Origin: an uncultured delta proteobacterium
GTDB taxonomy: Bacteria > Myxococcota_A > Polyangia > Polyangiales > Polyangiaceae
Length of the DNA stretch: 64,000 nt
NCBI GenBank assembly: GCA_963782055.1
Contig: CAWAIF010000003.1
Coordinates: 6,880,001 to 6,944,000 of the forward strand
Direction: 5' to 3'
Position numbers and translations under genes: made by a program. Position 1 is the stretch's first letter; every line of letters starts with the position of its first letter. A model generated the notes under the pieces. The model was not told where the DNA came from. It did no database searches and saw nothing but the letters and a program-made list of their open reading frames with translations. This document shows positions 15,725 to 50,531 of the stretch, piece after piece.

Positions 15725-15813
15725 GGCTTGGTCACCGCGCTCATGGTAACGCCTCACCGCCCGATGCGCCGCGCCGGGTTTGCATGGCGGGAAGGAGTGC
15801 AGCGCGTGTGCCC
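15725..15813 (-). repeat. Remnant of the Uma2 module (sigma54 box, leader, first ~7 codons)
   Basis: Near-identical to 17474..17562; the coding part stops after MSAVTKP. Confidence 0.9.
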
Positions 15814-15862
15814 GAAGCAGGACATGCTTGCGCCGCTCCCGACTCCGCAGTGTGATCAGGGG

Positions 15863-16680
15863 GTGAGCCACGATCTGATGCTCTGGCGGCCGCGTGCGGG
15901 AGCGCGGAGTGACCGGGCCATGGTCTACCTCGTGCTCGCGGGAGGCGCGCCGTGCGATGCCATCGAGCCGCTCGACTGCGCGGTCGTCGAGGAGGATCTC
16001 GACCGGCACTGTCCCGGGTGGCGCAGTGGCGAACGCGGAATGACCGTCGATCTCTGCGCGACGCACCTCGACGTCAGCCTCGCTGCCGGCGAGCGCGGCG
16101 GCGCGGCCCTCACCGCGATCCAGGCGCTGGCCGCCCGGCTTGGGCTCGAGCTCTTCGATCCCGGCGCGGCTCCGATCTCCCCGGCGGAGGACCGTGAGGC
16201 GGCGAGGACTCTCCGCGCGCACGATGCCGAGGCGACTCAGGAGCGCGTGCGCGTGTGGCAGCGCGAGGCCGAGAGCGGCGACGCCGCCGCGATGAACGAG
16301 CTCGGAAACGCCTACTCGATGGGCGAGGGCGTGCCGGAGGACGCCGCGCTCGCGGCGCAATGGTACGCGCGCGCTCGCCGCGCGCTGGCTCGAGCAGGCG
16401 GGCGCGCACGCAGGGCTACACCGAAGGGCTCGTGCGCCTCGCCGAGCTGTATCGGTCCGGCGACCGGATGCCGCGCGATCCCGCCCGCGCCCGGGCCATG
16501 CTGGAGCGTGCTCTCCCGCGAGACGGGCTGGTCGCCGCGTTCATGCTCGCGGAGATGATGGAAGCGGGTGAAGGCGGCGCCGCCGACGTCGAGCGGGCCA
16601 GGCAGCTCTATCGGGGCGCCCTCGAGCACCGCCACCCGGAGGCACGCCTCCGGCTCCGGCGGCTCGGGGAGGATGTGTGA
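15863..16680 (+). pseudogene. Sel1-like repeat protein, frameshifted near 16400
   Basis: AESGDAAAMNELGNAYSMGEGVPED.. in one frame; further SLR repeats in ORF 16255..16680. Confidence 0.75.
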
Positions 16681-16788
16681 GACCGGTAGCTCCCTGGGTG
16701 CGATGGACCAATCCCTGAACTCGGCGGGCAGGGCGAGGAGCATCAAGACCCGAGCCTCGGCATACGCATCACCGACGGGCCCGCCGCG

Positions 16789-17493
16789 TCACCTGCCGCC
16801 GCCGCGCTCCGCGAGCAGGGCGCGCAGCCGCGCAACCTCCTCCAGCGCTGCCTCCTTCGCGGCGCGCTCCGCTTCCTTCGCCGCGCGCTCCGCCTCCTCC
16901 GGCGTGGGGGCGAGCACGCCGTCGCGCGCGAGGCGCAGCGCAGCCGGCTCGCCTCTACCCGGTGCGATCACCCACGCGGCGCCCAGCGCGAGGCACGGCG
17001 TCGTGCCGCCGGAAACCGCGCGCTCGACCAGGTCGCCCTCGATGCGGTCCCACGCGCGGATGCGGAGCTCGTCCGCGTCGAAGCACACCACCTCCTGCGT
17101 GCCCAGCGCGCGGTAGCGCTCCAGCTTCTGCTCGAGGGGGATGGCCTCCCGCGTGTCGCTCGGGCTGAGGATCTCCACGCACAGCTCCGGCGTGCCGCGT
17201 TCCCACGTCTTCCACGATGGGAAGCTGTCTTGCGGCGTGCCCAGCTTGACGAAGCCGTCCGGCGCGAGGCACCGGCGAGGATCGCTCGCGTCGAAGTAGA
17301 CGAACTGATCGGCCCCCACCGTGTCCGCCTGCGTGACGGCCGCGAGCAGGATGGCGTGGAGGAGCTCGCACAGATAGAGGTGCCGCAGCGACTGACCCAA
17401 GGCCCACTCCTCCCTCGTGGACGGGAAGTCCACCGGCTGCACCGGACGGAGGTGGCGGAGGGAGGAGGCCTGCGGCTTGGTCACCGCGCTCAT
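16789..17493 (-). CDS. Uma2/DUF820 family PD-(D/E)XK endonuclease, copy 1
   Basis: APDGFV..PELCVEILSPSD..KLERY; coiled-coil tail. Confidence 0.9.
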   Translation of the reverse strand: MSAVTKPQASSLRHLRPVQPVDFPSTREEWALGQSLRHLYLCELLHAILLAAVTQADTVGADQFVYFDASDPRRCLAPDGFVKLGTPQDSFPSWKTWERGTPELCVEILSPSDTREAIPLEQKLERYRALGTQEVVCFDADELRIRAWDRIEGDLVERAVSGGTTPCLALGAAWVIAPGRGEPAALRLARDGVLAPTPEEAERAAKEAERAAKEAALEEVARLRALLAERGGGR

Positions 17494-17640
17494 GGTAACG
17501 CCTCGCCGCCCGATGCGCCGCGCCGGGTTTGCATGGCGGGAAGGAGTGCAGCGCGTGTGCCAGCGAGGGAGCGCAGGAATTCGCGGGGTTCGTGGCGGCG
17601 CGCGGGTGTCCGGGGACACCCGCGGGGGACAGGGCGGACA
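17490..17640 (-). promoter_or_regulatory. Uma2 leader: uORF 17490..17534, sigma54 box 17547..17562, palindrome 17601..17624, GGACA repeats
   Basis: TGGCACACGCGCTGCA (GG-N10-GC); CGCGGGTGTCC-GG-GGACACCCGCG. Confidence 0.75.
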
Positions 17641-17708
17641 GACGAGGACGCGCAGCCCGGCGACCAGACCGCGCGGTGCCGAAGCTCGAGTGCGGTCGCC
17701 GCCAGCGC

Positions 17709-18179
17709 TCACGGCACGGGCACGATGACGTCGAGCCCGTCGCCGCTCGGGTCCACCTCGCAAATGCCGCTGTGGTGATTGTCCATGCAGTCGCACGACA
17801 GGTCCTGAAGGCACTCGGGCGGCAGGTCGTAGCAGGAGGTCACCCCTGCGTCGGGCGACGGGCAGAGGGCCACTCCCCCGTCGGCGTCGAGGGGCATGGG
17901 CGGCGGCGCGCCCCCCGCGTGCTGGTAGACCACGCAGTAGTGATCCGCGCCTTCGCAGAGACAGTCACCGCAGAGGAAGGGGGCCCCCGCGTCGATGCGG
18001 CGCGGCGCCGGGGGCGAGGCGGCGTCGACCCTGGGCACGAAGTCGGGTCCGCCGTCCACGTCGGTGGGGGCGTCCGCCGTCGCGTCGCGCGTGACGTCGT
18101 CGTGCGCCGGCGCCGTGCCGCAGCCCGCCGCTACCATGCTGATCGCCGGGATGATCCAGGTGCGGAGCGCGCGGGTCAT
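17709..18179 (-). CDS. Cys-rich lipoprotein (cargo)
   Basis: MTRALRTWIIPAISMVAAGCG signal. Confidence 0.75.
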   Translation of the reverse strand: MTRALRTWIIPAISMVAAGCGTAPAHDDVTRDATADAPTDVDGGPDFVPRVDAASPPAPRRIDAGAPFLCGDCLCEGADHYCVVYQHAGGAPPPMPLDADGGVALCPSPDAGVTSCYDLPPECLQDLSCDCMDNHHSGICEVDPSGDGLDVIVPVP

Positions 18180-18199
18180 GGGCTCGAGGATAGCGCACT

Positions 18200-18378
18200 C
18201 GGGGGGGGCGCGGGGGGGCGCGGTGATGGCGACCGCGACGGTGCCGGACGTCAACAGCCCGATGCCCGTCCCGAGCATCGCCGGGCTGCGCACACCGTGA
18301 TCCTCCGCGCTCCGCGGAGGCCGCACCCGGGAGAAGGAGTCCGCCGGCGATGAGGCAGGCAACAAGCAGTCCGCGCAT
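18200..18378 (-). pseudogene. Fragment of a secreted/membrane protein gene
   Basis: Signal MRGLLVACLIAGGLLLPGAASAE, then a TM-like RSPAMLGTGIGLLTSG in another frame, then truncated. Confidence 0.35.
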
Positions 18379-18575
18379 TCGTCAACACTAGCAAGTACGG
18401 CGGCTGCTCGCCGGCCTCGCCCCGGTGCCGTGCGCGCGGCGCCGCGGATGGCTGCGAGGCCTCACGGGGCCGTCGGCGCGTGCGGTACCATCGATGCCGG
18501 GGGATCAGACCGACCCGAGGACGGCGCGGTGTGGAGCCGAGCCTCGGCATACGCATCACCGACGGGCCCGTCGCG

Positions 18576-19280
18576 TCACCTGCCGCCGCCGCGCTCCGTG
18601 AGCAGGGCGCGCAGCCGCGCAACCTCCTCCAGCGCTGCCTCCTTCGCCGCGCGCTCCGCTTCCTTCGCGGCGCGCTCCGCCTCTTCCGGCGTGGGGACGA
18701 GCACGCCGTCGCGCGCGAGGCGCAAGGCAGCCGGCTCGCCTCTACCCGGTGCGATCACCCACGCGGCGCCCAGCGCGAGGCACGGCGTCGTGCCGCCCGT
18801 GACCTCGCGCTCGACCAGATCGCCCTCGATGCGATCCCACGCGCGGATGAGGAGCTCGTCCGCGTCGAAGCACACCACCTCCTGCGCGCCGAGGGCGCGG
18901 TAGCGCTCCAGCTTCTGCTCGAGGGGGATCGCCTCCCGCGTGTCGCTCGGGCTGAGGATCTCCACGCACAGCTCCGGCGTGCCGCGCTCCCACGTCTTCC
19001 ACGAGCCGAAGCGATCCCGCGGATGGCCGAGCTTCACGAATCCGTCCGGCGCGAGGCAGCGCCGGGGATCGCTCGCGTCGAAGTAGATGAATGCGTCGGA
19101 CCCCACCGTGTCATCCGGCGTGACGGCAGCCGCGAGGATGGCGTAGAGCAGGACGCAGAGGTCCAGGTGGCGTGACGATTGACCCAAAGCCCACTCCTCC
19201 CTCGTGGACGGGAAGTCCACCGGCTGCACCGGGCGGAGGTGGCGGATGGAGGAGGCCTGCGGCTTGGTCACCGCGCTCAT
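18576..19280 (-). CDS. Uma2 family endonuclease, copy 2
   Basis: Paralogue of copy 1; most divergent N-terminal half. Confidence 0.9.
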   Translation of the reverse strand: MSAVTKPQASSIRHLRPVQPVDFPSTREEWALGQSSRHLDLCVLLYAILAAAVTPDDTVGSDAFIYFDASDPRRCLAPDGFVKLGHPRDRFGSWKTWERGTPELCVEILSPSDTREAIPLEQKLERYRALGAQEVVCFDADELLIRAWDRIEGDLVEREVTGGTTPCLALGAAWVIAPGRGEPAALRLARDGVLVPTPEEAERAAKEAERAAKEAALEEVARLRALLTERGGGR

Positions 19281-19430
19281 GGTAACGCCTCGCCGCCCGA
19301 TGCGCCGCGCCGGGTTTGCATGGCGGGGAGGAGTGCAGCGCGCGTGCCGGCGCGAGCGTGCGGGGTTTCTCGGGCTGCGAGGAGGTGGCGGGGTGTCCGG
19401 GGACACCCGAGATGGACAGGGGGGACACCC
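19277..19430 (-). promoter_or_regulatory. Uma2 leader with sigma54 box 19334..19349 and palindrome 19391..19408
   Basis: CGGCACGCGCGCTGCA; GGGTGTCC-GG-GGACACCC. Confidence 0.75.
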
Positions 19431-19444
19431 GGTCTGCGCCGCGA

Positions 19445-20497
19445 CTACCGATTGTAGGCCGGCTTCTCCAGCGGCAGCGGCTGCGGGTTGCGCAGCACCC
19501 AGGCGACCGCGAGCGCAGCCAGGCGATCGTTCCCGGCGCCCCCCCGCGCGTGCAGTGAACGCACGATCGACGCGATCTCGGCGATCTCCGACGGCCCGAG
19601 GGGCGTCCCGCGTTGCACGTAGCTCGCCAGGGCGGCCGCCATCTCGGTGTACGGGTCATCCCAGTTCGCCCCGCCGTTGCGCTCCCACTCGTCGGAGATG
19701 CGGCCCGTGATGCGGATGACCTCGCCCTGGACGGTGGCGGCAGGGCCGCGCGACGGCACCAGCAGATCCCACAGCTCCGCGTGCTGCTCCTGCCAGGTCG
19801 TCGTCTTCACGACGATGGGCGCGGCGCCCTCGTGCACGTGCCGGCGAGCCACCGGCGTGACCTCGAAGGTCGTGTAGAGGAAGTCGAGCGCGTCGCTGGC
19901 CGCCGCCACGCCCTCGCGGTTGAACCCCTCGCGATGAAACTCGAACGACTTGCCCGCCTGCGCGACGAAGCCCTTCATCGCCGGGGTGCGCTCGGCGCCG
20001 GCGTCCAGCATGACCTTCACGAAGGCCGGCATGCGATCGAGCTCGGCGTTGGTGCAGCCGCGCAGCGCGAGCTCGAGCGGGGTGAGCCCTTGCTTGTTGC
20101 GCGCATCGACCCGCGCGCCGTGCGCGAGCAAGAGCGCGGCGTTCTCGGTGTGCTTGCGGTCCGCCGCGGCGTGGAGCGGCGTGCCGATGGAGGCGGTGGC
20201 GGCGTTCACGTCGGCGCCGAGCTCCAGGAGCACCGGGATGTTGCCCCGCCAGCTCCGCGCCCGGGTGTGCAGCGGGGTGTTGCCCCAGGTGTCGACGGCG
20301 CCGAGGTCGGCTCCCCGCGCCACCAGCCATCGCGCGAGGGCGTCGGGACACCCGTCGAAGGCGAGGGCGGTCTGCTTCGCGTAGTCTCCGCGGGCATCGA
20401 CCTCGCAGGTCTCGAAGACCGCCTGGAGCGCGGCGAGATCCCCCGCCTCCAGCAGCTCGGCGAAGTTCTTCGGCAGGGTCTTGCGCTTGCTCGGCAC
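19445..20497 (-). CDS. Ankyrin repeat protein (cargo)
   Basis: GNTPLH, GTPLHAA, GLTPLELA repeats; TVQGEVIRI C-terminal domain. Confidence 0.9.
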   Translation of the reverse strand: MPSKRKTLPKNFAELLEAGDLAALQAVFETCEVDARGDYAKQTALAFDGCPDALARWLVARGADLGAVDTWGNTPLHTRARSWRGNIPVLLELGADVNAATASIGTPLHAAADRKHTENAALLLAHGARVDARNKQGLTPLELALRGCTNAELDRMPAFVKVMLDAGAERTPAMKGFVAQAGKSFEFHREGFNREGVAAASDALDFLYTTFEVTPVARRHVHEGAAPIVVKTTTWQEQHAELWDLLVPSRGPAATVQGEVIRITGRISDEWERNGGANWDDPYTEMAAALASYVQRGTPLGPSEIAEIASIVRSLHARGGAGNDRLAALAVAWVLRNPQPLPLEKPAYNR

Positions 20498-20640
20498 GCC
20501 GGCAGGCTACCACGCTCCGTGCGGGTCCCGCCGCCAGGGGCGGCGCTCCGGAACCACCCGTGCGGTCATGACGCGGTCGCGCTCGGAGGAACGGGAGCGT
20601 CACGGGACGCGCTCCGTCAGCGTGGGCCCCCTCGCCTTCA

Positions 20641-21345
20641 TCACGTGCCCCCGCCGCGCTCCGCGAGCAGGGCGCGCAGCCGCGCGAGCTCCTCGAGGGC
20701 CTTCGCCTCCCGCGCGAGCGCTGCTTCCTTCTCCGCGCGCTCTGCCTCCTCCGGCGTGGGGACGAGCACGCCGTCGCGCGCGAGGCGCAGCGCAGCCGGC
20801 TCGCCTCTACCCGGTGCGATCACCCACGCGGCGCCCAGCGCGAGGCACGGCGTGGTGCCGCCCGTGATCTCGCGCTCGACCAGATCGCCCTCGATGCGGT
20901 CCCACGCGCGGATGCGGAGCTCGTCCGCGTCGAAGCACACCACCTCCTGCACGCCGAGGGCGCGGTAGCGCTCCAGCTTCTGCTCGAGGGGGATCGCCTC
21001 CCGCGTGTCGCTCGGACTGAGGATCTCCACGCACAGCTCCGGCGTGCCGCGCTCCCACGTCTTCCACGATGGGAAGCTGTCTTGCGGCGTGCCCAGCTTG
21101 ACGAAGCCGTCCGGCGCGAGGCACCGGCGAGGATCGCTCGCGTCGAAGTAGACGAACTGATCGGCCCCGACCGTGTCCGCCGGCGTGACGGCGGCGCGAA
21201 GGATGGCGTGCAGGAGCTCGCAGAGATCCAGATGGCGCAGCGACTGACCCAAGGCCCACTCCTCCCTCGTGGACGGGAAGTCCACCGGCTGCACCGGACG
21301 GAGGTGGCGGAGGGAGGAGGCCTGCGGCTTGGTCACCGCGCTCAT
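20641..21345 (-). CDS. Uma2 family endonuclease, copy 3
   Basis: Paralogue of copy 1. Confidence 0.9.
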   Translation of the reverse strand: MSAVTKPQASSLRHLRPVQPVDFPSTREEWALGQSLRHLDLCELLHAILRAAVTPADTVGADQFVYFDASDPRRCLAPDGFVKLGTPQDSFPSWKTWERGTPELCVEILSPSDTREAIPLEQKLERYRALGVQEVVCFDADELRIRAWDRIEGDLVEREITGGTTPCLALGAAWVIAPGRGEPAALRLARDGVLVPTPEEAERAEKEAALAREAKALEELARLRALLAERGGGT

Positions 21346-21515
21346 GGTAACGCCTCGCCGCCCGATGCGCCGCGCCGGGTTTGCATGACGAGGAGGAGTG
21401 CAGCGCGTGTGCCAGCGAGCCGGTGCGGGATTTCGCGGCTGCGCGCGCGCGCGGGGTGTCCGGGGACACCCGCGGGGGACAGGGGGGACAGCCCGCGAGG
21501 AGCGGGGCTGTCCGC
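21342..21515 (-). promoter_or_regulatory. Uma2 leader with sigma54 box 21399..21414 and palindrome 21454..21471
   Basis: TGGCACACGCGCTGCA; GGGTGTCC-GG-GGACACCC; extra GGACAGCCC..GGGCTGTCC. Confidence 0.75.
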
Positions 21516-21580
21516 GTCGAGGTAGGCGGCGCGCTCCGCGGGCGCTGTCCGCTGCTCCCCACGCAGACTAGGATGCAGCC

Positions 21581-22510
21581 GTGGGACAGCGCAGCAACAC
21601 CGAGACCATCGTCGCGCTCCTCAAGGCGTTCCTGGATCAGCGCACATGGAAGCAGGCGGACCTGGCGCGCCACGTCGGCGTCCAGCCCGCCACCGTCCAC
21701 AAGCGCCTGGAGGAGCTGCGCGCCTGCGGCGTCCCCCTCGAGAGCGAGCGGGAGCACCCCCACGTCTTCTGGAGCGTGCCGCGGAGCTGGTACCCCGGCG
21801 GCGTGCTCTTCACCGGCGAGCAGGTGACGCAGATGTTCCGGCAGCTCTCCCGCCTGCCGAAGAGCAAGGCGCGCAACGCGCTCATCGAGACGGTGCTCCG
21901 GTACCTGCCCACGCGCCAGCCGGCGATCGCCATCGTCCCCGCGGAGACCACCGCGCGCGAGGAGCAGCACCTGCCCGTCATCGAGGACGCGGCGAACCAG
22001 AAGGTCGCCCTCCAGTTCCGCTACTTCACCGCCAACCGCGGCAGCGAGGGCAGGCGCCACGCGTCGGTGCACCGGGTGGTGCTCGGACCGCCCGCGCGCT
22101 TCGTCGCCACCTGCCACCGCACCGGCGGCCTCAAGTGGTTTCGCGTGGAGAACGTGTCCGACGCGAAGCTCGACGCCCGCGAGCCCTTCCGCGACGCCGA
22201 CGCGAAGACGGTGGACGCCCACCTGCGCGCCAGCCTGGACGGCTTCCACGAGGGCCGTCCCCCCGAGGCGCACGTCTTCTTCGTGAGCGATCCGGACGCG
22301 CGCTGGGTCGCCCGCAACCTCCTCGAGGAGATGCGCGCGGAGGAGGTCCCTGGCGGGATCCGCGTGACGCTGGAGACCTCCGCGCTCACCCGCCTCGCGC
22401 GGTTCGTGGTGGGCCTCGGCGCCGCGGCCAGACCGCTCACCCCCGCGCTGCGGGCGGAGGTGTCGGCGCTCGCGAAGGGTGCGCTGGAGTCGATCGCGCA
22501 GTCGAAGTAG
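21581..22510 (+). CDS. HTH-WYL domain transcriptional regulator
   Basis: N-terminal wHTH (QADLARHVGVQPATVHKRLEEL); WYL-like LQFRY..FVATCH..KWFRVENV. Confidence 0.85.
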   Translation: MGQRSNTETIVALLKAFLDQRTWKQADLARHVGVQPATVHKRLEELRACGVPLESEREHPHVFWSVPRSWYPGGVLFTGEQVTQMFRQLSRLPKSKARNALIETVLRYLPTRQPAIAIVPAETTAREEQHLPVIEDAANQKVALQFRYFTANRGSEGRRHASVHRVVLGPPARFVATCHRTGGLKWFRVENVSDAKLDAREPFRDADAKTVDAHLRASLDGFHEGRPPEAHVFFVSDPDARWVARNLLEEMRAEEVPGGIRVTLETSALTRLARFVVGLGAAARPLTPALRAEVSALAKGALESIAQSK

Positions 22511-22612
22511 GCCCTCCCGGCCGGGAGTGAACAAGCGGCCAGTCGTGGCTATCTGGTGCGCCCTTTCGGCGAAGGGGCAGTCGCACGGTGAGAGGTACCC
22601 GAGGAGGCCTCC

Positions 22613-22876
22613 ATGAGCGACTTCGATCCCACCGCCGCGCTGCTGCAGTTTCCGGATACGCCGCGCGTCCGGCGCGCGCGCACCCTCGACATCGCGGGCA
22701 GGGCGATCCCGCTCCTGCAGGCGGCGCTGGATGCGGGCAACGCGACGCTGCTCCGCGAGCTCTTCGCGGTGCTCGGGGACGTGGCCGCCGGCGAGGACGC
22801 GCTCGCCCGGTTCGTGGCTATCTCCGTCGCGGACGCGCAGGTCGTGGCGATCGCCGGAGAGGCGGCGGGATCATGA
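22613..22876 (+). CDS. Small hypothetical protein
   Basis: GAGGAGG RBS; stop overlaps the next ATG (ATGA). Confidence 0.65.
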   Translation: MSDFDPTAALLQFPDTPRVRRARTLDIAGRAIPLLQAALDAGNATLLRELFAVLGDVAAGEDALARFVAISVADAQVVAIAGEAAGS

Positions 22877-24267
22877 GCCGCGGCGCTCACCTGTCCAAGT
22901 CGCGGTACACCGCCGGTCTCCAGTGCCACCGCGCGCTGTGGTGGAGGGTCCACGACCCGGAGGCGCCGGAGCTCGTCAGCGGCCCGGAGCTGCAGGCGAT
23001 CTTCGACCGGGGCGCGCGCGTGGGCGAGCTCGCCCGGGAGTACCTCCCCGGCGGAGAGCTCATCCACTCTCCCTGCGAGGAGGTCGAGAGGAGCATCGAG
23101 GCGACGCGCGCAGCGATCGCCGCGGGCGCCAGGATCATCTACGAGGCCTCCTTCCGCGCCGACGACGTGTTCGTCGCGGTCGACATCCTGCACCGGCCTC
23201 CGCGCAGCCGCGGCTGGACCCTCTCGGAGGTGAAGTCGACGACGAAGGTGAAGCCGCACCACATCCCCGGCGCCGCGGTGCAGACGCACGTGCTCCGCCG
23301 CGCGGGGCTCCCCGTCACGCGGACCGAGGTGATGCACCTCGAGCGCGAGTGCCGCCACCCGGCCCTCTACAACCTCTTCACCCGCACCGACGTGAGCGAG
23401 GAGGTCGAGGAGTACCTGCCCGCCGTCCCGCGGGAGGTGAGGGCGCAGCTCCGGATGCTCGGGCGCGCGTCGCCGCCGGAGGTCCGGCCCGGCGCGCACT
23501 GCACCGCGCCGTACGTGTGTCCCTTCCTCGCGCGCTGCTGGGGGGAGGAGGAGGAGGTCGTACAAAAGGAGGCGGTCATCGTCGACGAGCGTCTGCGCGA
23601 CGTGCTCGCGGGGCTCGAGGGCCCGATCGCCCACCTCGACTTCGAGACCGTCAATCCGGCCGTGCCCGTCTGGCCAGGTTGCCGTCCGTACGATCCGGTT
23701 CCGGTGCAGTTCAGCGTCCACTTCGAGCCGGTGGGAGAGGGCGCTCCGAGGCACTTCGAGTGGCTCGCCAGCGGAGCGGGTGATCCTCGCACTGCGCTCG
23801 CGCGCGCCCTCGTCCGCGCCCTGCGGGGCGCGCGCACGGTCATCGTGTATCACCAGCCCTTCGAGCAGGGGCGGCTGCGCGATCTCCAGGAGGCGGTGCC
23901 GGACCTCGCCGGCGAGCTCGAGGACATCATCGCGCGCCTGGTGGACCTGCTGCCCATCGTGCGCAGGCACGTGGTGCACCCGGGGTTCGGGGGGCGCTAC
24001 AGCCTGAAGAAGGTGGCGCCCGCGCTGGTGCCCGGGCTGCGCTACGAGGAGATGGAGATCGGGGACGGCGCGGCGGCGAGCCGGGCGCTGGAGACTCTGC
24101 TGCTCGGGCCGGAGGTGAGCGCGGGGGAGCGGCGGAGGACGCGGGAGGCGCTGCTGGCGTACTGCGGGCAGGACACGCTGGCGACGATGGGGGTGCTCTC
24201 GTGGCTGCGAAGGGCGGTGGGATCGCGCGGGATGCGGACGGCGCGACGCGCAGGGCGCGGGGCCTGA
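22873..24267 (+). CDS. DUF2779-type nuclease (PD-(D/E)XK N-terminus + RNase H-like C-terminus)
   Basis: LSKSRY..GLQC, DIL..EVKS, HLDFET, PVQFSVH, YSLKKV, LLAYCGQDT. Confidence 0.85.
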   Translation: MSRGAHLSKSRYTAGLQCHRALWWRVHDPEAPELVSGPELQAIFDRGARVGELAREYLPGGELIHSPCEEVERSIEATRAAIAAGARIIYEASFRADDVFVAVDILHRPPRSRGWTLSEVKSTTKVKPHHIPGAAVQTHVLRRAGLPVTRTEVMHLERECRHPALYNLFTRTDVSEEVEEYLPAVPREVRAQLRMLGRASPPEVRPGAHCTAPYVCPFLARCWGEEEEVVQKEAVIVDERLRDVLAGLEGPIAHLDFETVNPAVPVWPGCRPYDPVPVQFSVHFEPVGEGAPRHFEWLASGAGDPRTALARALVRALRGARTVIVYHQPFEQGRLRDLQEAVPDLAGELEDIIARLVDLLPIVRRHVVHPGFGGRYSLKKVAPALVPGLRYEEMEIGDGAAASRALETLLLGPEVSAGERRRTREALLAYCGQDTLATMGVLSWLRRAVGSRGMRTARRAGRGA

Positions 24268-24360
24268 CGCGCGTGCCCCGCGTTGCCGCCGTCACGGGCC
24301 GAGGTACCGCGTACGTTCGCGCTTGCGGAACATCTGACCGGACGTATAGGTTCTTCCAGA

Positions 24361-25155
24361 ATGGTGCCAGGCGCCAGCGACGACGAGATCGTGTCGTTCA
24401 GCCGCCCGCCCGTGGTCGAGGTGGTGTACGGCGCGCAGTTTCACGCGCTCCCGCTGCAGACCGTCCACTACGGCAGGTTCTGGGACCGCATCCGCCAGAC
24501 GTATCAAAAGACGCTGGACGTGCCGCCGCTGCCCTCCATCCTGGAGACACCGGCCGGTCAATCCGCCGTCGGTATCTTCACCGTCTCGCCGCTACCCGAC
24601 CTCCGCCGCGTGTTCTTCGTCGACGAGGAGCACGGCCGGATGCTCCAGCTCCAGCCCAACCGTTTCCACCACAACTGGCGACGTCGAACGGACGTGGAGC
24701 CCTATCCTCGATTCCGTGAACTTCGCCCCCAGTTCGTCGACAGGTGGCGGGAGTTCCTCACGTTCCTCGAGGACGAAGGTCTACCTCCCCCTCATGTCAC
24801 TCAGGGGGAGATGACGTACATCAACCAGATGCCCTTCGGTGAGCTCTGGGACGACGCCGGGCTCGCCAGGCTATTCCCGTGGCTGACGCCCAGGAACCCT
24901 GCGCTACCGGCTGCGCCGGGCGTCGAGGTCGCGCTCCACTTCGAGGCACCGGAGCTGCACGGCAGAGTCCACATCACCATCGGTATGGCGACTCCGCCGA
25001 AGGACGGGCAGCGCGTGGTCCAGATGGAGCTCACCGCGCGCGGCGCGCCCGACAATCTGGAGCAGTGGCTCGTGGCAGCACGGAGCGCGATTGTTCGCAG
25101 CTTCGTCGAGCTCACGGGGGCGGACGCCCACGCACACTGGGGGAGGGTCACTTGA
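24361..25155 (+). CDS. TIGR04255-family protein
   Basis: FSRPPVVEVVYGAQF, LQLQPNRFHHNWRR..YPRF, YINQ, HAHWG. Confidence 0.8.
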   Translation: MVPGASDDEIVSFSRPPVVEVVYGAQFHALPLQTVHYGRFWDRIRQTYQKTLDVPPLPSILETPAGQSAVGIFTVSPLPDLRRVFFVDEEHGRMLQLQPNRFHHNWRRRTDVEPYPRFRELRPQFVDRWREFLTFLEDEGLPPPHVTQGEMTYINQMPFGELWDDAGLARLFPWLTPRNPALPAAPGVEVALHFEAPELHGRVHITIGMATPPKDGQRVVQMELTARGAPDNLEQWLVAARSAIVRSFVELTGADAHAHWGRVT

Positions 25156-25673
25156 GCGCCGCGAAGATGTTCGCGTACGGTGGCAGCGGGACATCGTCCA
25201 GCGTCCTGGAGTCCGGCACGGGTGCACCTACCCGTCCCCGGGGTTCGCTCGGGACGACGGTGGACCTTTCTGGGACGGCGAGGCAGGTCGAACGGGCGAG
25301 CGAGATCCTGGCGGCCGAGGAGAGCGCGCTCGGCCGGATCAAGGAGCTCGTCGGACAGACCGCCTCACGTGACTGGGACGGCGAGGGAGGGGAGCCGATC
25401 GAGCCGCGCCAGTGGGACGACGCGAGGGCGCTCGTGTCCCGTGCAGTCCGTGAGCTCCTCGGGCTCCCCCCGCCGTTCGTCAGCGCGTGCGGAGACGGCA
25501 CTGTGCACCTCCAGTGGACGACCCCGCACGGCGACCGTGGCATCATCGAGATCGGACGCGACGCGTACTGGTGGGACTACCTTCCGGCTCCGGATCGCGG
25601 AGAGCAGGACGAGGTGCTCGCACTCTCGAGCCCGGACCCGGCCTTCGAGAAGGTCCGCGCGCTCTTCGGTTGA
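25152..25673 (+). CDS. Hypothetical protein (DWDGEGGEP motif)
   Basis: Coupled to the previous gene (TTGA); WDG..G..GDG.VHLQW. Confidence 0.7.
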   Translation: MSAAKMFAYGGSGTSSSVLESGTGAPTRPRGSLGTTVDLSGTARQVERASEILAAEESALGRIKELVGQTASRDWDGEGGEPIEPRQWDDARALVSRAVRELLGLPPPFVSACGDGTVHLQWTTPHGDRGIIEIGRDAYWWDYLPAPDRGEQDEVLALSSPDPAFEKVRALFG

Positions 25674-25675
25674 CG

Positions 25676-26098
25676 ATGCCCGGAGACCGGCCGGACGTCA
25701 CCGAGCTCGAGGTCGCTCCGGACGACTCCATCCTGTTCCGGTTCGTGCAGCCGACTCACATCGACGCCAAGGCGCCGCCCGGCGCCCGGCTACAGACCGC
25801 CGCGCTTCCCACGAACGAGTTCACGCCCAACGAGCACGGCTACGGAGCGTCCGTGTACGTGAAGTCGCTGCTCGCCAACGGGCTTCGCGATCTCCACGAA
25901 GCGTGCCCCAAGTGGTGCGACTGGCGCGTCGCAGAAGTCCCGGTGCGGGAAATGCTCGAACTCGGCGTGGGGGTCCGCCTCTCGCCGCAAGACTGTCCGT
26001 TCGAGGCCATCCGCCACGCACACGCGTCCCTCATTGGCGTGACGAGGCAGAAGCGGAACCTCCTCATCCGCATCATCGAGCGGCGCCTGCTCCCCTGA
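25676..26098 (+). CDS. Small hypothetical protein, possible ADP-ribosyltransferase/RES-like fold
   Basis: LFR..GASVY..HAHASL pattern; operonic. Confidence 0.6.
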   Translation: MPGDRPDVTELEVAPDDSILFRFVQPTHIDAKAPPGARLQTAALPTNEFTPNEHGYGASVYVKSLLANGLRDLHEACPKWCDWRVAEVPVREMLELGVGVRLSPQDCPFEAIRHAHASLIGVTRQKRNLLIRIIERRLLP

Positions 26099-26271
26099 CG
26101 GAACGGATCACGCGTGCCATGCGCGAGGCGCTACGGATCCAGCGCGACTTCCGCGCGAACCTCGGCCATCCCCGGGGGAGGTCTCCACGCCGCGCCAGGC
26201 ATCGAGCTCCGCGATGCCCTCGTCGAGCGCGTCGCGCAGCGCCGAGCGCTTCTTCTCCTCGAGCACGAGCC

Positions 26272-27909
26272 CTACCGGTTCTTCTTGCGCGCCTTGCGCG
26301 CCGCCTTGCGCTTGTCCTTCTTCGCGCGCGCCGCCTTCGGCGCGGCCGACGGCGCCCGCCCGAGCGGAGGCGTCCCGATCGAGAGCGGCCTCTCCTGCAG
26401 GTCTCGCATCCAGGCCTCGATGCCCTCCTTCGTCTCGACGTCGAAGCCCGCGGCGCGCCCCGCCTGCACCACCGACTTCGCCGTTCCGAAGTTGCGCGGG
26501 TCGGAGAGCGCGGCCTCGAGCTTCTCCACCGCGTCGCCGCCGAGCACGCGCAGGCACGCGTCCGCCTGCGGCAGCCCGAACTCGCGCTTCAGGAAGGCGT
26601 AAAACGCCCGGTTCGTCTCGATGATCGCGCGCGCCTCGGCGGCGGCGATGGTCACCTTGGCCGGGAGGATCTCGAAGAGGAGCTCCCGCAGCTCCGCCGC
26701 CTGGAGGGTCGCGACGCTGGCGCCCATGAAGCTCGCCGCGAGATCGATCACGTAGTGGCAGTCGTCGACGTGCGTCAGCGCCGCGCCCTCGGGGGACTCC
26801 GCGAAGCGGCGCACCAGCTCCTCCTCCAGCTCGGTCTCCTCGTCCGGGTCCACGTCTTCTCCGGCGCTCGCGAGCTCGGTCAGGCGGCCGAGCACGTCGT
26901 AGGGTGGCCGGTAGCGCCCGGTGTCGTCGTACGGCGCGCCCACCGTGACCTCCACCTCCCCGGCGTGCGTCTGGACCCGGAGCGTGCGCCGGAAGCCGGC
27001 GCCCGCGCGCCACGCGTCGCGCACCGCGCGGCGGTCCGCCAGCGCCTCCGGCAGCGCCAGCGCGATCGCCTCGGCGAGGGTCAGCTCCTTCGCCTTCGGC
27101 GGCCGCCCGACCATGTCCTCGTCGACCACGACGACCCAGGGATAGGCGTCGGCGCCGGCGACCTCCCAGCCGTGCTCGGCGATCTCCTTGCGCAGCGCGT
27201 CCGGCAGCTCGGCGCCTCGCTGGAAGTTGATGGCGAAGTGCGCCGGCAGCTCCGGCTCCTCGCCGGCCTCCACGTCCGCGGCCGCCTCGAGGAACCTCTC
27301 GAGGTCATCGAGCCCGGAGAAGAGCAGGACCGCGCGGCTCTCGCCGAGCTGGCCGATCACGATCATCGCCGCGTCGCGCAGGCCCAGGCTCTCGATCGTC
27401 ACCGAGAGCACGCTCTCGTCGTCGGGCACGGCCTCCCAGGGCCGCGCGCGGAAGAGGCCGGCGGCGGCGCGAAAGAAGGACGCCACCGCCGCGGGGCCGA
27501 TGTCCGGCGCCAGGTACGACGGCTCCGCCCCCGTCCCGTGCTCGCCCATGTGCTCGCGCATCGAGCCGAGCATGCCGTCGACCTCCGGTGTCGGGGCGCA
27601 GACGAGCTCCACCGCGGGGGGCAGCGCCTCCCGCAGGGCGCGCGCGAGCTCCGGCGAGGCCACGCGGACGCGCGCGGGGGTGTGGGGACGTCCGACCGCC
27701 GGGTGAAGCGTCGTGCGGTGGAAGCTCGCGGCGGCGCCGGCGAGGATCTCGCCCGGCTTCGCGGTGTCGAAGCCCAGCACCGGACCGTCGGGGAGCATCC
27801 ACACCAGCAGCTCGGGCCGGTAGGGCTCGCCCTCGCCGGTGACGTACGCCGGCATCCGTCCCACCCCGCACACCCACTCGGTGCCCTTCGATCGTGCGCT
27901 CTTCTTCAT
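26272..27909 (-). CDS. Hypothetical protein with basic C-terminal tail
   Basis: 545-aa ORF, GGAG RBS; FRARPWE motif; KKDKRKAARKARKKNR end. Confidence 0.8.
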   Translation of the reverse strand: MKKSARSKGTEWVCGVGRMPAYVTGEGEPYRPELLVWMLPDGPVLGFDTAKPGEILAGAAASFHRTTLHPAVGRPHTPARVRVASPELARALREALPPAVELVCAPTPEVDGMLGSMREHMGEHGTGAEPSYLAPDIGPAAVASFFRAAAGLFRARPWEAVPDDESVLSVTIESLGLRDAAMIVIGQLGESRAVLLFSGLDDLERFLEAAADVEAGEEPELPAHFAINFQRGAELPDALRKEIAEHGWEVAGADAYPWVVVVDEDMVGRPPKAKELTLAEAIALALPEALADRRAVRDAWRAGAGFRRTLRVQTHAGEVEVTVGAPYDDTGRYRPPYDVLGRLTELASAGEDVDPDEETELEEELVRRFAESPEGAALTHVDDCHYVIDLAASFMGASVATLQAAELRELLFEILPAKVTIAAAEARAIIETNRAFYAFLKREFGLPQADACLRVLGGDAVEKLEAALSDPRNFGTAKSVVQAGRAAGFDVETKEGIEAWMRDLQERPLSIGTPPLGRAPSAAPKAARAKKDKRKAARKARKKNR

Positions 27910-27999
27910 GGCTGCTCCAGGGCGTGGAGCATAGCCCCGTTCGGGCCGCGATCATCGCGCCGTTCTTCCCCGCGCAGGCGAGGAAGAAGGGCTCGCTCG

Positions 28000-28707
28000 C
28001 TAGCGTTCGCCGTCGCCGTGCTTCGCCAGAAGCGCGCGCAGCCGGGCCACCTCCTCGAGCGCCTTCTCCTTCTCGGCGCGTTCCGCCTCCTTCGCGGCGC
28101 GCTCCGCCTCCTCCGGCGTGGGGACGAGCACGCCATCCCGCGCGAGGCGCAGCGCAGCCGGCTCGCCTCTACCCGGAGCGATCACCCACGCGGCGCCCAG
28201 CGCGAGGCACGGCGTGGTGCCGCCGGAGACTTCGCGCTCGACCAGATCGCCCTCGATGCGATCCCACGCGCGGATGCGGAGCTCGTCCGCGTCGAAGCAC
28301 ACCACCTCCCTCGTGCCGAGGGCGCGGTAGCGCTCCAGCTTCTGCTCGAGGGGGATCGCCTCGCGCGTGTCGCTCGGACTGAGGATCTCCACGCACAGCT
28401 CCGGCGTGCCACGCTCCCACGTCTTCCACGATGGGAAGCTGTCCTGCGAAGCGCCACGCTTGACGAAGCCGTCGGGCGCGAGGCAGCGGCGAGGATCGCT
28501 CGCGTCGAAGTAGACGAACTGATCGGACCCGACCGTGTCCGCCTGCGTGACGGCGGCGCGAAGGATGGCGTGAAGGAGCTCACAGAGATCCAGATGGCGC
28601 AGCGACTGACCCAAGGCCCACTCCTCCCTCGTGGACGGGAAGTCCACCGGCCGGACCGGGCGGAGGTGGCGGATGGAGGAGGTCTGCGGCTTGGTCACCG
28701 CGCTCAT
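28000..28707 (-). CDS. Uma2 family endonuclease, copy 4
   Basis: Paralogue of copy 1. Confidence 0.9.
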   Translation of the reverse strand: MSAVTKPQTSSIRHLRPVRPVDFPSTREEWALGQSLRHLDLCELLHAILRAAVTQADTVGSDQFVYFDASDPRRCLAPDGFVKRGASQDSFPSWKTWERGTPELCVEILSPSDTREAIPLEQKLERYRALGTREVVCFDADELRIRAWDRIEGDLVEREVSGGTTPCLALGAAWVIAPGRGEPAALRLARDGVLVPTPEEAERAAKEAERAEKEKALEEVARLRALLAKHGDGER

Positions 28708-28866
28708 GGTAACGCCTCACCGCCGGGTGCGCCGCGCCGGGTTTGCATGGCGGGGAGCAGAGCAGCGCGCGTGCCGGCGAGAGCGTGCGCTATTTCTCGG
28801 GCGAGGACACGCGCGCGGGCTGTCCGCGGACACCCCCGAGGGACAGGGCGACGACCTGGCGACAGG
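28704..28866 (-). promoter_or_regulatory. Uma2 leader with sigma54 box 28761..28776 and palindrome 28821..28832
   Basis: CGGCACGCGCGCTGCT; TGTCC-GC-GGACA. Confidence 0.7.
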
Positions 28867-28893
28867 CCACGCCGACGCCGACAATCCGAGGTG

Positions 28894-29493
28894 TCACGGA
28901 TCGCACTCCGTCAGCGTCGGACCGCCGTAGAGGCTCGGGTACGAGCGACACCGGGGGCCCTGGTAGACGACGTCGTCCGCGTCGCCGAGCATCGCCGCCG
29001 CCGTCTGCCGCGCGGCCGCCACGTCGGCGCGATGTTCGGCGGCGCGCCGGTCCTCGATCGCAATCTCGGTGCGGGCAGCGTGATCGAGCACGGCGGCATC
29101 ATGCGAGTCGAGCAGCGCCAGCTCGTAGACCCTCGGGGCCTCGCAGCGCCGAGGGTTCGCGTCGCACGCGAGCCTGACGGCGCTCCAGTCCGCGGCGAAG
29201 TAGCGCCTCGTCAACCACGCGTCGAGCGCGCGGGCGTACAGCCTCTCGCAGCGATCGCGGTCGATGCCCGCGCACTTCTTCTCCCGGAACATGGTGCGGA
29301 AGCGCGCGGTCGACGCGTATTCGAGGAGCAGGCCGCAACCCGGCCGGAGGCCGCCATCACGACACGTCGGGGAGATGACCCGATGCGCGGCGTCGGAGCG
29401 CACGCCGGCGATCTCCGTGTCGGCGCGATCGTCGATGGCCGCGGCGTTGCAGCCCGCGCAGGCCAGCGGTACCAGCAGGAGCCCCCATCGCAT
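28894..29493 (-). CDS. Hypothetical lipoprotein (cargo)
   Basis: MRWGLLLVPLACAGC signal. Confidence 0.75.
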   Translation of the reverse strand: MRWGLLLVPLACAGCNAAAIDDRADTEIAGVRSDAAHRVISPTCRDGGLRPGCGLLLEYASTARFRTMFREKKCAGIDRDRCERLYARALDAWLTRRYFAADWSAVRLACDANPRRCEAPRVYELALLDSHDAAVLDHAARTEIAIEDRRAAEHRADVAAARQTAAAMLGDADDVVYQGPRCRSYPSLYGGPTLTECDP

Positions 29494-29555
29494 GACTGAG
29501 GGATAGCACGCGGCTCGTGTGCGGCCACGGCTGGCCGCGCGCGGCCCTGGAGCGA

Positions 29556-30302
29556 CTACGTTCCCCCGCCGCGCTCCGCGAGCAGGGCGCGCAGCCGGGC
29601 CACCTCCTCGAGCGCCTTCTCCTTCTCGGCGCGCTCCGCCTCCTTCGCGGCGCGCTCCGCCTCCTTCGCGGCGCGCTCCGCCTCCTTCGCCGCGCGCTCC
29701 GCCTCCTCCGGCGTGGGGACGAGCACGCCATCCCGCGCGAGGCGCAGCGCAGCCGGCTCGCCTCTACCCGGAGCGATCACCCACGCGGCGCCCAGCGCGA
29801 GGCACGGCGTGGTGCCGCCCGAGACTTCGCGCTCCACCAGATCGCCCTCGATGCGGTCCCACGCGCGGATGCGGAGCTCGTCCGCGTCGAAGCACACCAC
29901 CTCCCGCGCGCCGAGGGCGCGGTAGCGCTCCAGCTTCTCCTCGAGGGGGATCGCCTCGCGCGTGTCGCTCGGACTGAGGATCTCCACGCACAGCTCCGGC
30001 GTGCCACGCTCCCACGTCTTCCACGATGGAAAGGTGTCCTGCGGCGTGCCCCGCTTCACGAACCCGTCCGGCGCGAGGCACCGGCGCGGATCGCCCGCGT
30101 CGAAGTAGACGAACTGATCGGACCCGACCGTGTCCGCCTGCGTGACGGCGGCGCGAAGGATGGCGTGAAGGAGCTCACAGAGATCCAGATGGCGCAGCGA
30201 CTGACCCAAGGCCCACTCCTCCCTCGTGGACGGGAAGTCCACCGGCCGGACCGGGCGGAGGTGGCGGATGGAGGAGGCCTGAGGCTTGGTCACCGCGCTC
30301 AT
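29556..30302 (-). CDS. Uma2 family endonuclease, copy 5 (expanded heptad tail)
   Basis: Paralogue with (EAERAAK)x3 + EAERAEK. Confidence 0.9.
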   Translation of the reverse strand: MSAVTKPQASSIRHLRPVRPVDFPSTREEWALGQSLRHLDLCELLHAILRAAVTQADTVGSDQFVYFDAGDPRRCLAPDGFVKRGTPQDTFPSWKTWERGTPELCVEILSPSDTREAIPLEEKLERYRALGAREVVCFDADELRIRAWDRIEGDLVEREVSGGTTPCLALGAAWVIAPGRGEPAALRLARDGVLVPTPEEAERAAKEAERAAKEAERAAKEAERAEKEKALEEVARLRALLAERGGGT

Positions 30303-30450
30303 GGTAACGCCTCGCCGCCGGATGCGCCGCGCCGGGTTTGCATGGCGGGGAGCAGAGCAGCGCGCGTGCCAGCGAGGGCGCGCGGGAATTCTCGGGTGCG
30401 CGCGCGGCGCGGGGTGTCCGGGGACAGGCAAGCCGGACAGTCAGGACACC
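30299..30450 (-). promoter_or_regulatory. Uma2 leader with sigma54 box 30356..30371 and palindrome 30415..30426
   Basis: TGGCACGCGCGCTGCT; TGTCC-GG-GGACA; GGACA repeats. Confidence 0.75.
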
Positions 30451-30577
30451 TCGAAGGCTCCGAGGACGTCACCGAGCGCGTGCGCGCCCGGTGAGCATGC
30501 CGGTCAGTCCGGCCGGGCGCCATGTGGCGTGTTGGCGAGACGAAGTGCCGCTGGACCGGCAGACCGCCGACGCTGTC

Positions 30578-30865
30578 TCACCGGACGTTCTGCTCGACCC
30601 GCCACTCGTCCCACAGGGCGAGCGCCGCACCGAGGAGCGCGCCGTACTCTGCGGAGGAGGGCCCGCCGGCGGCTTCCTGAAGGGGCCCGCGGGCCGCGTC
30701 GACCACGTCGAGCAGCCGCCTCTGGTCCTGCGCGTCCGCGTTGAAGATCTGGAGCGTGCGCTCGCGGCCATCGTAGTCGCCGACGAGCCGCTCCGAGGGA
30801 ATCCATCGCACGGGGCGACCGCCGACGAGCCGAGAGACCACGAAAGGGATCTGCTCGCGGTTCAT
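30578..30865 (-). CDS. HEPN partner, a deletion-fusion of the homologues of 54647..55012 and 54196..54645
   Basis: N-terminus matches MNREHVPFFVSRLV..; C-terminus AALALWDEWR matches AALRLWDEWR. Confidence 0.75.
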   Translation of the reverse strand: MNREQIPFVVSRLVGGRPVRWIPSERLVGDYDGRERTLQIFNADAQDQRRLLDVVDAARGPLQEAAGGPSSAEYGALLGAALALWDEWRVEQNVR

Positions 30866-31203
30866 CCGAGGAGTCCTCCCACCAGCTTTTCTGCCAGCGA
30901 AGCCGCCCTGTCGGCCTCCTCGGGCTCCACGGGTTCGTCGTGGTAGTCAGCCTTCAACCGCATCCCGTAGAGCTCCTTCAAGTCCTTGCGACCTTCTTCA
31001 TCAAGGATACCGATTCTCGCCGCGTCGTCCGGCAGCAGATCGTGTCGGTAGTACTGCTTGTCGGAGGTGAACTCGAGGTGGCGAGCCTGCGCGACGTGCG
31101 CGACCGCGTGGTAGGCCGCGTAGTACGCGCGGTTGGCGGCGGCGTTGGCGAGACAGGGTCGGACGCCGTCGTCGTCCGGGAGCAGCCGACCGCGGCGCGT
31201 CAA
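30862..31203 (-). CDS. HEPN domain protein, N-terminally shortened paralogue of 55012..55395
   Basis: ANRAYYAAYHA..R.KADY. Confidence 0.75.
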   Translation of the reverse strand: MTRRGRLLPDDDGVRPCLANAAANRAYYAAYHAVAHVAQARHLEFTSDKQYYRHDLLPDDAARIGILDEEGRKDLKELYGMRLKADYHDEPVEPEEADRAASLAEKLVGGLLG

Positions 31204-31212
31204 TCATCGCAG

Positions 31213-31307
31213 AGCAGAATGCATGCCGGGCGCGGGGACCGTGATTTCCCGCGCGAGGACGACGCCCGAGGTGTCCGGGGACAGCCGCCACCTGTCCCGG
31301 GGACACC
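31213..31307 (-). promoter_or_regulatory. sigma54 box (31213..31228) and two TGTCC..GGACA palindromes upstream of the HEPN gene
   Basis: CGGCATGCATTCTGCT; TGTCC-GG-GGACA at 31272, TGTCCC-G-GGGACA at 31293. Confidence 0.7.
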
Positions 31308-32057: not shown

Positions 32058-32200
32058 CCGTGCACTCCGCATGCCGCCGTGCTCATGTGCAGCGCCGGAT
32101 TCGCGCGGCCGCCGGTGCTGCGAGAGTCGACCGGTGGTCCTTCCGGCTGCGCCGCGGCCCGCCCGGCCTGCTGCGCGTGACCGACCGCTTATCGAGAGAC

Positions 32201-32839
32201 TCATCTCTTCTTCTGCAGGGCGTCGACGCGGGTGCGGAGGGCGTCAATCTCCTTCTGCTGCTGCTGCACGGTTGCAAGAAGCATGCTGGTGTAGCCGTAC
32301 TCGTCGACGTGCGTGCGGTCGGCCTGCACCGCCGGACTCGGATCAGGCTGGTCGTCGATGATGAATCCCAGGTGGCGCCTGGCGCTGGCGGGCTCCGCCT
32401 TGTAGCGATACTCCGCGAGGCGCGTCCGGAGGGCCTGCTGGGCAAGCGCCTCGCGCTCCTGGTCGTCGACATAGTCGATGTCGGTCTTGAACGCCCGACG
32501 GGAGATATAGCCCCCGCCGCTGCACTTGCTCGCGAGATCGCACTCACACTTGACGGTGGGTCCTCCGCAGCAGCAAACCTGGCCCGACGTGCACCACGGG
32601 CTGCACCCGGGCGCGCTGGGAGGCTGGCACGGCGGTGTTGCAGCGTCATCGACCTCGGACGCCGGAATCGAGCCGCGAACCCAATCACAGTAGTAGGCCT
32701 CACCGTCGCCCCCTGCGCCGCCGTCCGCGGAAGCTCCCCCCCCATCGGTCCCGTCTCTGCCTCCCCCCGGCGCTATCTTCCCGCACGCGGTAAAGAGCCC
32801 GATGAGGAGGACGATGACAGGACGTGAGGAGCGGCTCAT
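32201..32839 (-). CDS. Lipoprotein with C-terminal peptidase S74 / intramolecular chaperone domain
   Basis: Lipobox LFTAC; SRRAFKTDI..YRYK..LGFI..coiled coil. Confidence 0.8.
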   Translation of the reverse strand: MSRSSRPVIVLLIGLFTACGKIAPGGGRDGTDGGGASADGGAGGDGEAYYCDWVRGSIPASEVDDAATPPCQPPSAPGCSPWCTSGQVCCCGGPTVKCECDLASKCSGGGYISRRAFKTDIDYVDDQEREALAQQALRTRLAEYRYKAEPASARRHLGFIIDDQPDPSPAVQADRTHVDEYGYTSMLLATVQQQQKEIDALRTRVDALQKKR

Positions 32840-35139: not shown

Positions 35140-35328
35140 GACTCTGCCTCCCTGGGGACGAGACCCTCCCGTCCTCTTCGAGACCTTCGCGCGATCCGCG
35201 CTCACAGTGCGCGCACAAATGCAGCCTCCGGCGTCACACTGCCGTCACCGGCGACAGGTGGCACTCGTAGCTTGCAAAGCTCCGGGGGGGGGGGGAGATA
35301 CTCTGTGGCTTCGAGGAGGGCGCCATCC

Positions 35329-50520: not shown

Positions 50521-50531
50521 CTCCGCCCTCG

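Follow-up and report, generated by a model that had tools for sequence, protein, structure and literature searches.

How does one gene come to be repeated five times with unrelated genes between its copies? The question is raised by a 64-kb stretch of DNA (C3:6,880,001-6,944,000; hereafter the window, to which coordinates refer unless prefixed C3, L or G) in the genome of an uncultured Polyangiaceae bacterium (G000; 7.58 Mb in three contigs, 72% GC), whose named protein relatives come mainly from Polyangiaceae and other myxobacterial assemblies. On its minus strand lie five co-oriented modules of about 850-890 bp, each a Uma2-family gene with its upstream region, plus one 88-bp remnant, and unrelated genes (the cargo) stand between them. 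The main new element of our analysis is the promoter of these modules, which is shared with DNA-uptake genes. We hold, with about even confidence, that a competence-induced nuclease unit was duplicated locally and that cargo was then gained and exchanged by RecA-dependent recombination anchored in the units, most likely with DNA taken up by transformation.

With the module limits taken as stop codon to first TGTCC, module c1 (16789..17640) comprises an enhancer, a sigma-54 box at 17561, a 14-codon upstream open reading frame (ORF) and a Uma2 gene of 234 amino acids (aa) starting at the ATG at 17493. The other modules are c2 (18576..19427), c3 (20641..21490; 234 aa), c4 (28000..28845; 235 aa) and c5 (29556..30448; 248 aa, with two additional 7-residue repeats in the C-terminal helix). 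The remnant c0 (15725..15812), also on the minus strand and identical to c1 in 87 of 88 nucleotides (nt), retains the sigma-54 box, the upstream ORF and the first six Uma2 codons and is without the enhancer and the remaining gene. An earlier, sequence-only reading of this DNA had described five modules and a remnant, which we confirm, and had called them near-identical; at 88-93% identity across the whole module, "highly similar" fits better. Over the first 600 nt of coding sequence the copies are 89.2-96.7% identical, and the ratio of replacement to silent substitution rates (dN/dS) is 0.12-0.25 in all 10 pairs, which shows that the five copies are under purifying selection. The genome has 14 Uma2-family matches, six of them in this subfamily: the five in the array and a solo copy at C3:1711850-1712653 with 75% identity. 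This genome search agrees with the local clustering, as opposed to genome-wide scatter, expected from the sequence-only reading, and a cluster of five of the six copies in 14 kb or less arose in none of 2,000,000 random placements. Each of the five gaps between the six module pieces contains cargo, and there are no direct tandems; in three cases the distance from the cargo end to the next enhancer is 15-130 nt. No tRNA gene was found in the 64-kb window.

The upstream region and its promoter motif

TGTCC half-sites and a dyad, TGTCC-NN-GGACA, open each module, and a GG-N10-GC box follows 43-45 nt further on. The GGACA repeats look like the enhancer of a sigma-54 promoter: going by the sigma-54 consensus, we take the box to be the -24/-12 promoter and the repeats to be the activator enhancer. 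The sequence-only reading overlooked this promoter layout, which is common to DNA-uptake genes, and set the module end at the repeats; that limit does not hold, since the motif is found genome-wide with 69 perfect dyads. Its presence before sigma-54 boxes throughout the genome also rules out the repeats as element ends or recombination sites.

Dyad and box occur together at 79 sites in the genome, 52 of which precede a dispersed MarR gene. The same combination is found before comM (with recA downstream), before radC and ssb, before an 89-aa gene that has comEA after it, before two IS91-type transposase genes, the HEPN gene of the window and all six Uma2 genes of the subfamily, and comEC has the enhancer and the sigma-54 box with two mismatches in the dyad. 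Under the strict pattern 102 of 1790 sigma-54-like boxes carry the dyad, compared to about 35 expected (background 1.96%). None of the 8 other Uma2-family genes of the genome has both enhancer and box. The genome encodes comEC, comEA, dprA, comM, radC, yraN and two recA genes, and comEA, comEC, comM and radC are listed as Legionella competence genes (PMC12378983). The motif is likely a competence-regulon promoter and the module is likely expressed during competence, because the upstream signal of Uma2 is shared with DNA-uptake genes. The titles and abstract openings searched, with most subscription papers outside the search, gave no literature that connects Uma2 with competence or that describes the promoter.

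The arrangement extends to other genomes. Among 73 fetched subfamily copies, which are mutually related and some of which may be double-counted, 46 have a sigma-54 box that is followed by a start codon at 24-32 nt, and 42 of these 46 have the enhancer. On inspection, the spelling of the half-site as TGTCC or TGGCC tracks the host genome in both the uptake-gene and the Uma2 sets. The ATG that lies 27 nt past the GG of the box opens, in this genome, an ORF of 12-14 codons with a stop codon overlapping the ATG of Uma2; in other genomes the box-proximal ATG is in frame with the Uma2 gene in 38 of 40 copies. A second, leaderless-type -10 hexamer 7 nt before the in-frame start is present in 49/73 copies, a raw count without chance control. 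Scans for sigma-70 promoters and terminators gave chance levels. The genome has at least 25 sigma-54 activators by a crude motif. PilR was considered as the activator from its motif and rejected, as pilA has no such repeats within 330 nt; a literature search on this point was unproductive. The shared promoter gives Uma2/DUF820 a testable context, that of DNA uptake and recombination, and from the motif a candidate sigma-54 competence regulon can be drawn up for myxobacteria of the Polyangiaceae type, which could help to induce transformation in them.

Several multiplying gene units use the same promoter. The 58 dispersed MarR units (enhancer, sigma-54 box and MarR gene; for example C3:1345780-1346490, L136), of which pairs are up to 99% identical, have the enhancer-to-stop anatomy of the Uma2 modules, with ragged 3' ends and no terminal repeats. 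Two IS91-type transposase genes, the family being named by eye, are located at C3:4409620-4411600 and 5265160-5267130, and a 100-bp palindromic repeat at their 3' ends is arrayed at about 2.73, 4.41-4.49, 5.18-5.27 and 6.17-6.20 Mb. Mobilisation of the modules by this transposase was discarded because the end repeat matches nothing in the window. The 89-aa gene between the competence-type promoter and comEA (C3:966309-966575; L134:710-976, minus strand) has no Pfam match and is a candidate for a possible new competence protein.

The Uma2 protein and its mosaic copies

All five copies exceed the Pfam cut-off for Uma2 (PF05685), c3 scoring 45.3 bits against a cut-off of 27. The predicted model of c3 (predicted local distance difference test score 89.5) retrieved the DUF820-type structures 9y1l, 6okh, 3ot2 and 1wdj, which fill the top 7 Foldseek ranks. 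Pfam score and model together uphold the earlier assignment to Uma2/DUF820, and the model has a restriction-endonuclease-like fold. A search of the PDB with the single sequence gave no match, and a profile search found 9y1l at E 1e-4. In an alignment of 56 sequences P78, D79 and E107 are invariant, and S110 and K123 are conserved in at least 90%; by comparison with the family, we take these five to be the PD...E...K catalytic residues. A long helix forms the tail, and the number of its 7-residue repeats varies. The large Uma2/DUF820/COG4636 family includes members of solved structure (PDB 3ot2, 1wdj, 6okh, 9y1l), and its lineage-specific expansions are described without an assigned function (PMC1274311, PMC9403480, PMC4963859).

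The copies are mosaics of each other. Modules c1 and c3 have in common a run of 28 polymorphic sites (0 of 10,000 permutations), c4 and c5 one of 36 (p 0.0001). Breakpoints were detected for c3/c4 (p 0.001) and c2/c3 (p 0.004), two of 10 pairs thus falling below 0.005, with the breakpoint p values uncorrected. Module c1 resembles c3 in its middle part and c2 at its 3' end. From nt 30 to 300, c2 is 82-84% identical to every other copy, compared to 95-97% beyond, and its branch length is 0.27 in this patch and 0.02 in the rest of the gene. The patch, at codons about 31-94 and over the predicted helix 36-52, has 17 silent and 13 replacement codons. No source for it was found within the genome, and the solo copy is ruled out as one. 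The simplest reading is that the patch would be an imported allele; it is possible that it represents an old, unconverted version.

The module ends are ragged. Conservation is lowest at the 5' end, in the enhancer region (65-84% in the first segment compared), and the 3' ends diverge in the final codons, save for c1 and c2, which share about 39 nt more. This bears out the sequence-only reading, in which similarity stopped near the stop codon and extended further only in c1 and c2. No terminal inverted repeats or target duplications were found at the modules, the longest shared flank word being 5-6 nt. That reading saw no recombinase in the window, and a search for tyrosine recombinases agrees, with 23 PF00589 matches in the genome, 0 in the window and the nearest, a partial one, 95 kb to the left. 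The 35 window ORFs scanned included no serine recombinase and no DDE transposase, though no family-specific search was made for either. A repeat search, in which no attC model was applied, shows that only the module recurs between cargos, and no IntI lies in the window; the earlier phrase "integron without an integrase" holds as an analogy only. From the lack of terminal repeats, the lack of a tyrosine recombinase in the window and the like anatomy of the MarR units with their ragged ends, the module limits look like limits of function and homology, not transposon ends.

Origin of the array

At E 1e-35, 141 of the 383 family genomes have the subfamily, the own genome included. Among the matches listed (178 more are not listed), at least nine genomes have co-oriented copies within 20 kb, and all nine were inspected; the comparisons of arrangement in this section have that scope. 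In G347 module-limited copies of 88% identity have MerR and DUF326 genes between them. In G215 the copies are 86% identical; the 13 kb between them contain defence-like genes (helicase/PLD, ATPase, FtsK-nuclease, nucleotidyltransferase), and a 98-nt 3' remnant is also present. Unrelated genes stand between the fourth copy and the others in G004, so that two to three relatives have a module-cargo-module layout. Cargo-free tandems occur in G100 (four copies, 94-96%, plus a second pair), G104, G212, G373 and G004, larger segmental duplications in G371 and G387, and dispersed, mostly module-limited copies in G123 (78-89%, four compared); in yet other relatives the module stands by itself. Five alternating units were seen in no relative. 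Six same-genus genomes, about 80% identical, are without the island and the array; in four genomes of the genus the dnaK block is shared up to about 3.8-4.6 kb, and in the three traced beyond it (G001, G004 and G006) core genes come next. Two further observations were made in these genomes. In G215 a gene at L073:14473-15555, minus strand, lies under a third enhancer and sigma-54 box between two Uma2 modules; by eye it seemed Rpn-like, an assignment dropped as it has no Pfam match. G371 has 15 RadC-domain matches (e.g. L104, L109-L113), compared to one each in four others.

In the account of local duplication followed by RecA-anchored exchange, tandem duplication would give adjoining units, as in the relatives, and a rare illegitimate event would place a foreign gene between two of them. 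Incoming unit-cargo-unit DNA could then cross over at both ends with a single resident unit, by which the cargo would be inserted and the unit duplicated. Recombination between neighbouring units would delete cargo. From such a double-ended crossover one expects the core of the unit to be homogenised and its 5' and 3' ends to be specific to the donor, which is the pattern observed. Transformation is the likely route because the genome has uptake genes and the unit carries their promoter. By analogy with YraN and CoiA (PMC13663708), Uma2 may be a nuclease that is induced in competence and whose targets would be incoming DNA or the intermediates of recombination. Like these two, it is predicted to cleave branched or single-stranded DNA when the cell is competent, and it could be an accessory or a selfish factor. 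The idea of a recombination anchor, put forward in the sequence-only reading, gains from the mosaic copies, the module-limited similarity and the two to three relatives with module-cargo-module layout, and loses from cargo-free tandems being at least as common. If the anchor model is true, the array amounts to a cassette system that needs nothing but host recombination. A bolder version, unlikely in our view, is an integrase-free, transformation-powered capture array in which the uptake-induced nuclease would cut recombination intermediates and so fix foreign genes beside its own copies, being one of a class of promoter-plus-gene units (Uma2, the 58 MarR units, the IS91-type genes) that would spread by joining a sigma-54 competence regulon of these myxobacteria not described before.

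Other explanations were weighed against this account. We give next to no credence to the array being an artefact of long-read metagenome assembly, which could be suspected from two frameshifted cargo genes and from the lack of an array-spanning read in the public data examined. One public DNA run (share 0.05; no RNA run is listed) may be the source sample; its pieces are short, and none spans the array or carries a joint, which speaks neither for nor against excision. Yet its short contigs match c3, c4 and c5 with 0-1 differences, and one of 280 nt has 0 differences to c4 and 14 to c3. Mis-assembly is unlikely because the copies, 3-11% different, differ under purifying selection (dN/dS 0.12-0.25) and their copy-specific letters are found in public contigs. 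We also find it very improbable that the Uma2 nuclease moves its own module by local hopping. The dispersed copies in G123 and the MarR modules, with equal promoter-to-stop anatomy, would fit such movement, but the sole dispersed copy in the present genome is distant, the ends are ragged with the 5' end least conserved, and terminal inverted repeats and target duplications are missing, so that the local self-propagation of the sequence-only reading, taken as that of a transposon, is not supported. According to one study, an autonomous transposase of this fold is not known (PMC10400941).

A passive history is possible but short of probable: a competence-regulated gene would have been tandemly duplicated in a variable island, insertions of unrelated genes accumulated where they were least harmful, and gene conversion preserved the likeness of the copies, with no special capture site and no shuffling. 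The cargo-free tandems common in relatives fit this history, as do the non-syntenic region to the right of about 4.6 kb with its BREX-type (bacteriophage exclusion) system, the cargo in both orientations, the ankyrin gene with its own -10-like element and the description of rpn arrays as tandem duplications (PMC10400941). It explains less well that all five gaps hold cargo with no direct tandem left, that three cargo ends stop so close to the next enhancer, that the c2 patch is sourceless in the genome and that the layout recurs with different cargo in G347 and G215. Decidedly unlikely is an Rpn-like defence repertoire, in which toxic nucleases are restrained by a variable C-terminal helix, the copies are specificity variants, and the promoter arms them against foreign DNA or protects the island from curing. 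The varying number of 7-residue repeats in the tail helix, the divergent helix patch of c2 with its 13 amino-acid-changing codons, the defence-type neighbours (WYL, HEPN and BREX genes) and the rpn precedent (PMC10400941) can be cited for it. PADLOC gave candidate matches that are weak (E 2e-4 to 3e-3) and span about 35-50 residues. No Rpn/YhgA domain was found in the Uma2 protein, for which Pfam gives Uma2 only and NCBIfam nothing; the in-frame internal GTG codons at 175 and 193 have, on inspection, no evident ribosome-binding site; and the alternation with cargo is left unexplained.

Several observations weigh against RecA-anchored exchange under competence control. The highest similarity is often between neighbours (c4/c5 96.7%), which plain duplication with gene conversion also explains, and five of the nine inspected genomes have cargo-free tandems and two have segmental duplications. 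The copies in G004 are clustered though they have no sigma-54 box, so that competence control is not needed for clustering. The genomes compared at this locus belong to the same genus and, at about 80% identity, to other species. The ankyrin-repeat cargo gene (19445..20497, minus strand) occurs in 10 of 382 other family genomes and in none of these 10 within 1.5 kb of a Uma2 gene. Homology-facilitated illegitimate recombination is reportedly orders of magnitude rarer than homologous recombination (PMC5361080). As to the promoter, the motif was not found before dprA or, on inspection, before yraN, and pilA has the sigma-54 box only. In five relatives the strict motif precedes comM in 3/5, comEC in 2/5 and radC in 2/4 assessable cases, i.e. 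7/14 loci. The 7 loci without it count against the shared control and the 7 with it count in favour, as does G371, in which it is missing both at the comM, comEC and radC genes and at the Uma2 copies. The genes with the motif include ssb and recA, which makes a DNA-damage regulon a possible alternative reading.

The cargo labels Sel1, ankyrin, WYL, DUF2779 and HEPN of the sequence-only reading were borne out by Pfam, and the TIGR04255 label holds as well. Between c0 and c1 lies a Sel1-repeat gene (15920..16680, plus strand) convergent with c1 and split over two frames, both with a Sel1 match. It is followed by a Cys-rich lipoprotein-like gene with uncertain start (17709..18378, minus), which has no Pfam match and has paralogues at C3:2.16 Mb by tblastn. 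The ankyrin gene between c2 and c3, identified by Pfam and sporadic in the family, has its -10-like element by inspection. Between c3 and c4 are a plus-strand block (21581..26098) with a WYL regulator, an 87-aa ORF, a frameshifted DUF2779 gene, a TIGR04255 gene and two hypothetical ORFs, assigned by Pfam and NCBIfam, and a 545-aa gene (26272..27909, minus) with weak DUF6930/DUF7309 similarity below cut-off. The frameshifts in the Sel1 (15920-16680) and DUF2779 (22873-24267) genes reflect decay or long-read error. A 199-aa lipoprotein-like gene without family match (28894..29493, minus) separates c4 and c5. Beyond c5 stand a HEPN gene and its 95-aa partner (30578..31203, minus), which share 72% identity with another such pair at about 54.8-55.4 kb; the array HEPN copy is without about 20 N-terminal residues. 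Before it, at 31205..31307 (minus), are an enhancer and a sigma-54 box (31227) without a Uma2 gene, with a sequence nearer to the comEA and comM promoters.

Further to the right, the BREX-type block (44250-63981, minus) encodes kinase/NERD, methyltransferase, DUF6079, PglZ, BrxC/D and Lhr-type helicase proteins and is interrupted by the second HEPN pair; from its gene content it is presumably type 2. An FGE-sulfatase (formylglycine-enzyme-like) gene is tandemly duplicated at 38219-40368 (minus; 83-88%), and the gene of a 789-aa secreted protein with adjoining pieces (32200-35205) has paralogues of 72-85% at C3:1.44, 2.41 and 3.91 Mb. To the right of the window there are two ORFs that by eye are transposase-like (C3:6946843-6948174 and 6969401-6970750) and two more distant Uma2-family genes (C3:6963352 and 6972449).

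Comparison with known systems

The array protein shares with the Uma2/DUF820 family the fold, the acidic active-site motif and lineage-specific expansion (PMC1274311, PMC9403480). This myxobacterial subfamily differs from other Uma2 proteins in the 7-residue-repeat tail, the competence-type sigma-54 promoter and the cargo between copies. The rpn arrays are alike in having a patchy, multi-copy PD-(D/E)XK gene without terminal repeats or target duplications, with variable ends and C-terminal helix repeats (PMC10400941). Here, in contrast, the Pfam family is another one, no internal antitoxin start was detected, the promoter is of competence type and unrelated cargo alternates with the copies, although some types of rpn duplication may also have cargo interspersed (PMC10400941). 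YraN and CoiA are competence-linked PD-(D/E)XK nucleases that act on the transformation D-loop, and CoiA is competence-expressed (PMC13663708). They are single-copy core genes, whereas Uma2 is accessory and the genome has its own yraN.

Integrons are alike in that a repeated element recurs between genes, which stand singly or in small blocks, but the array has no integrase, its repeat is a coding unit of 850 bp in place of attC, and cargo lies in both orientations. The Staphylococcus aureus lpl cluster (PMC2568036) and the Vibrio type VI secretion system (T6SS) immunity arrays (PMC5361080) resemble the present locus in their conserved, repeated recombination anchor, variable DNA between anchors, mosaics, remnants and lack of an integrase. 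The variable part in lpl and T6SS arrays belongs to the same gene family or toxin system, whereas in the present locus a complete nuclease transcription unit is the anchor and the genes in between are unrelated. The array works most like the lpl cluster and the T6SS immunity arrays, and is neither an integron nor an insertion sequence.

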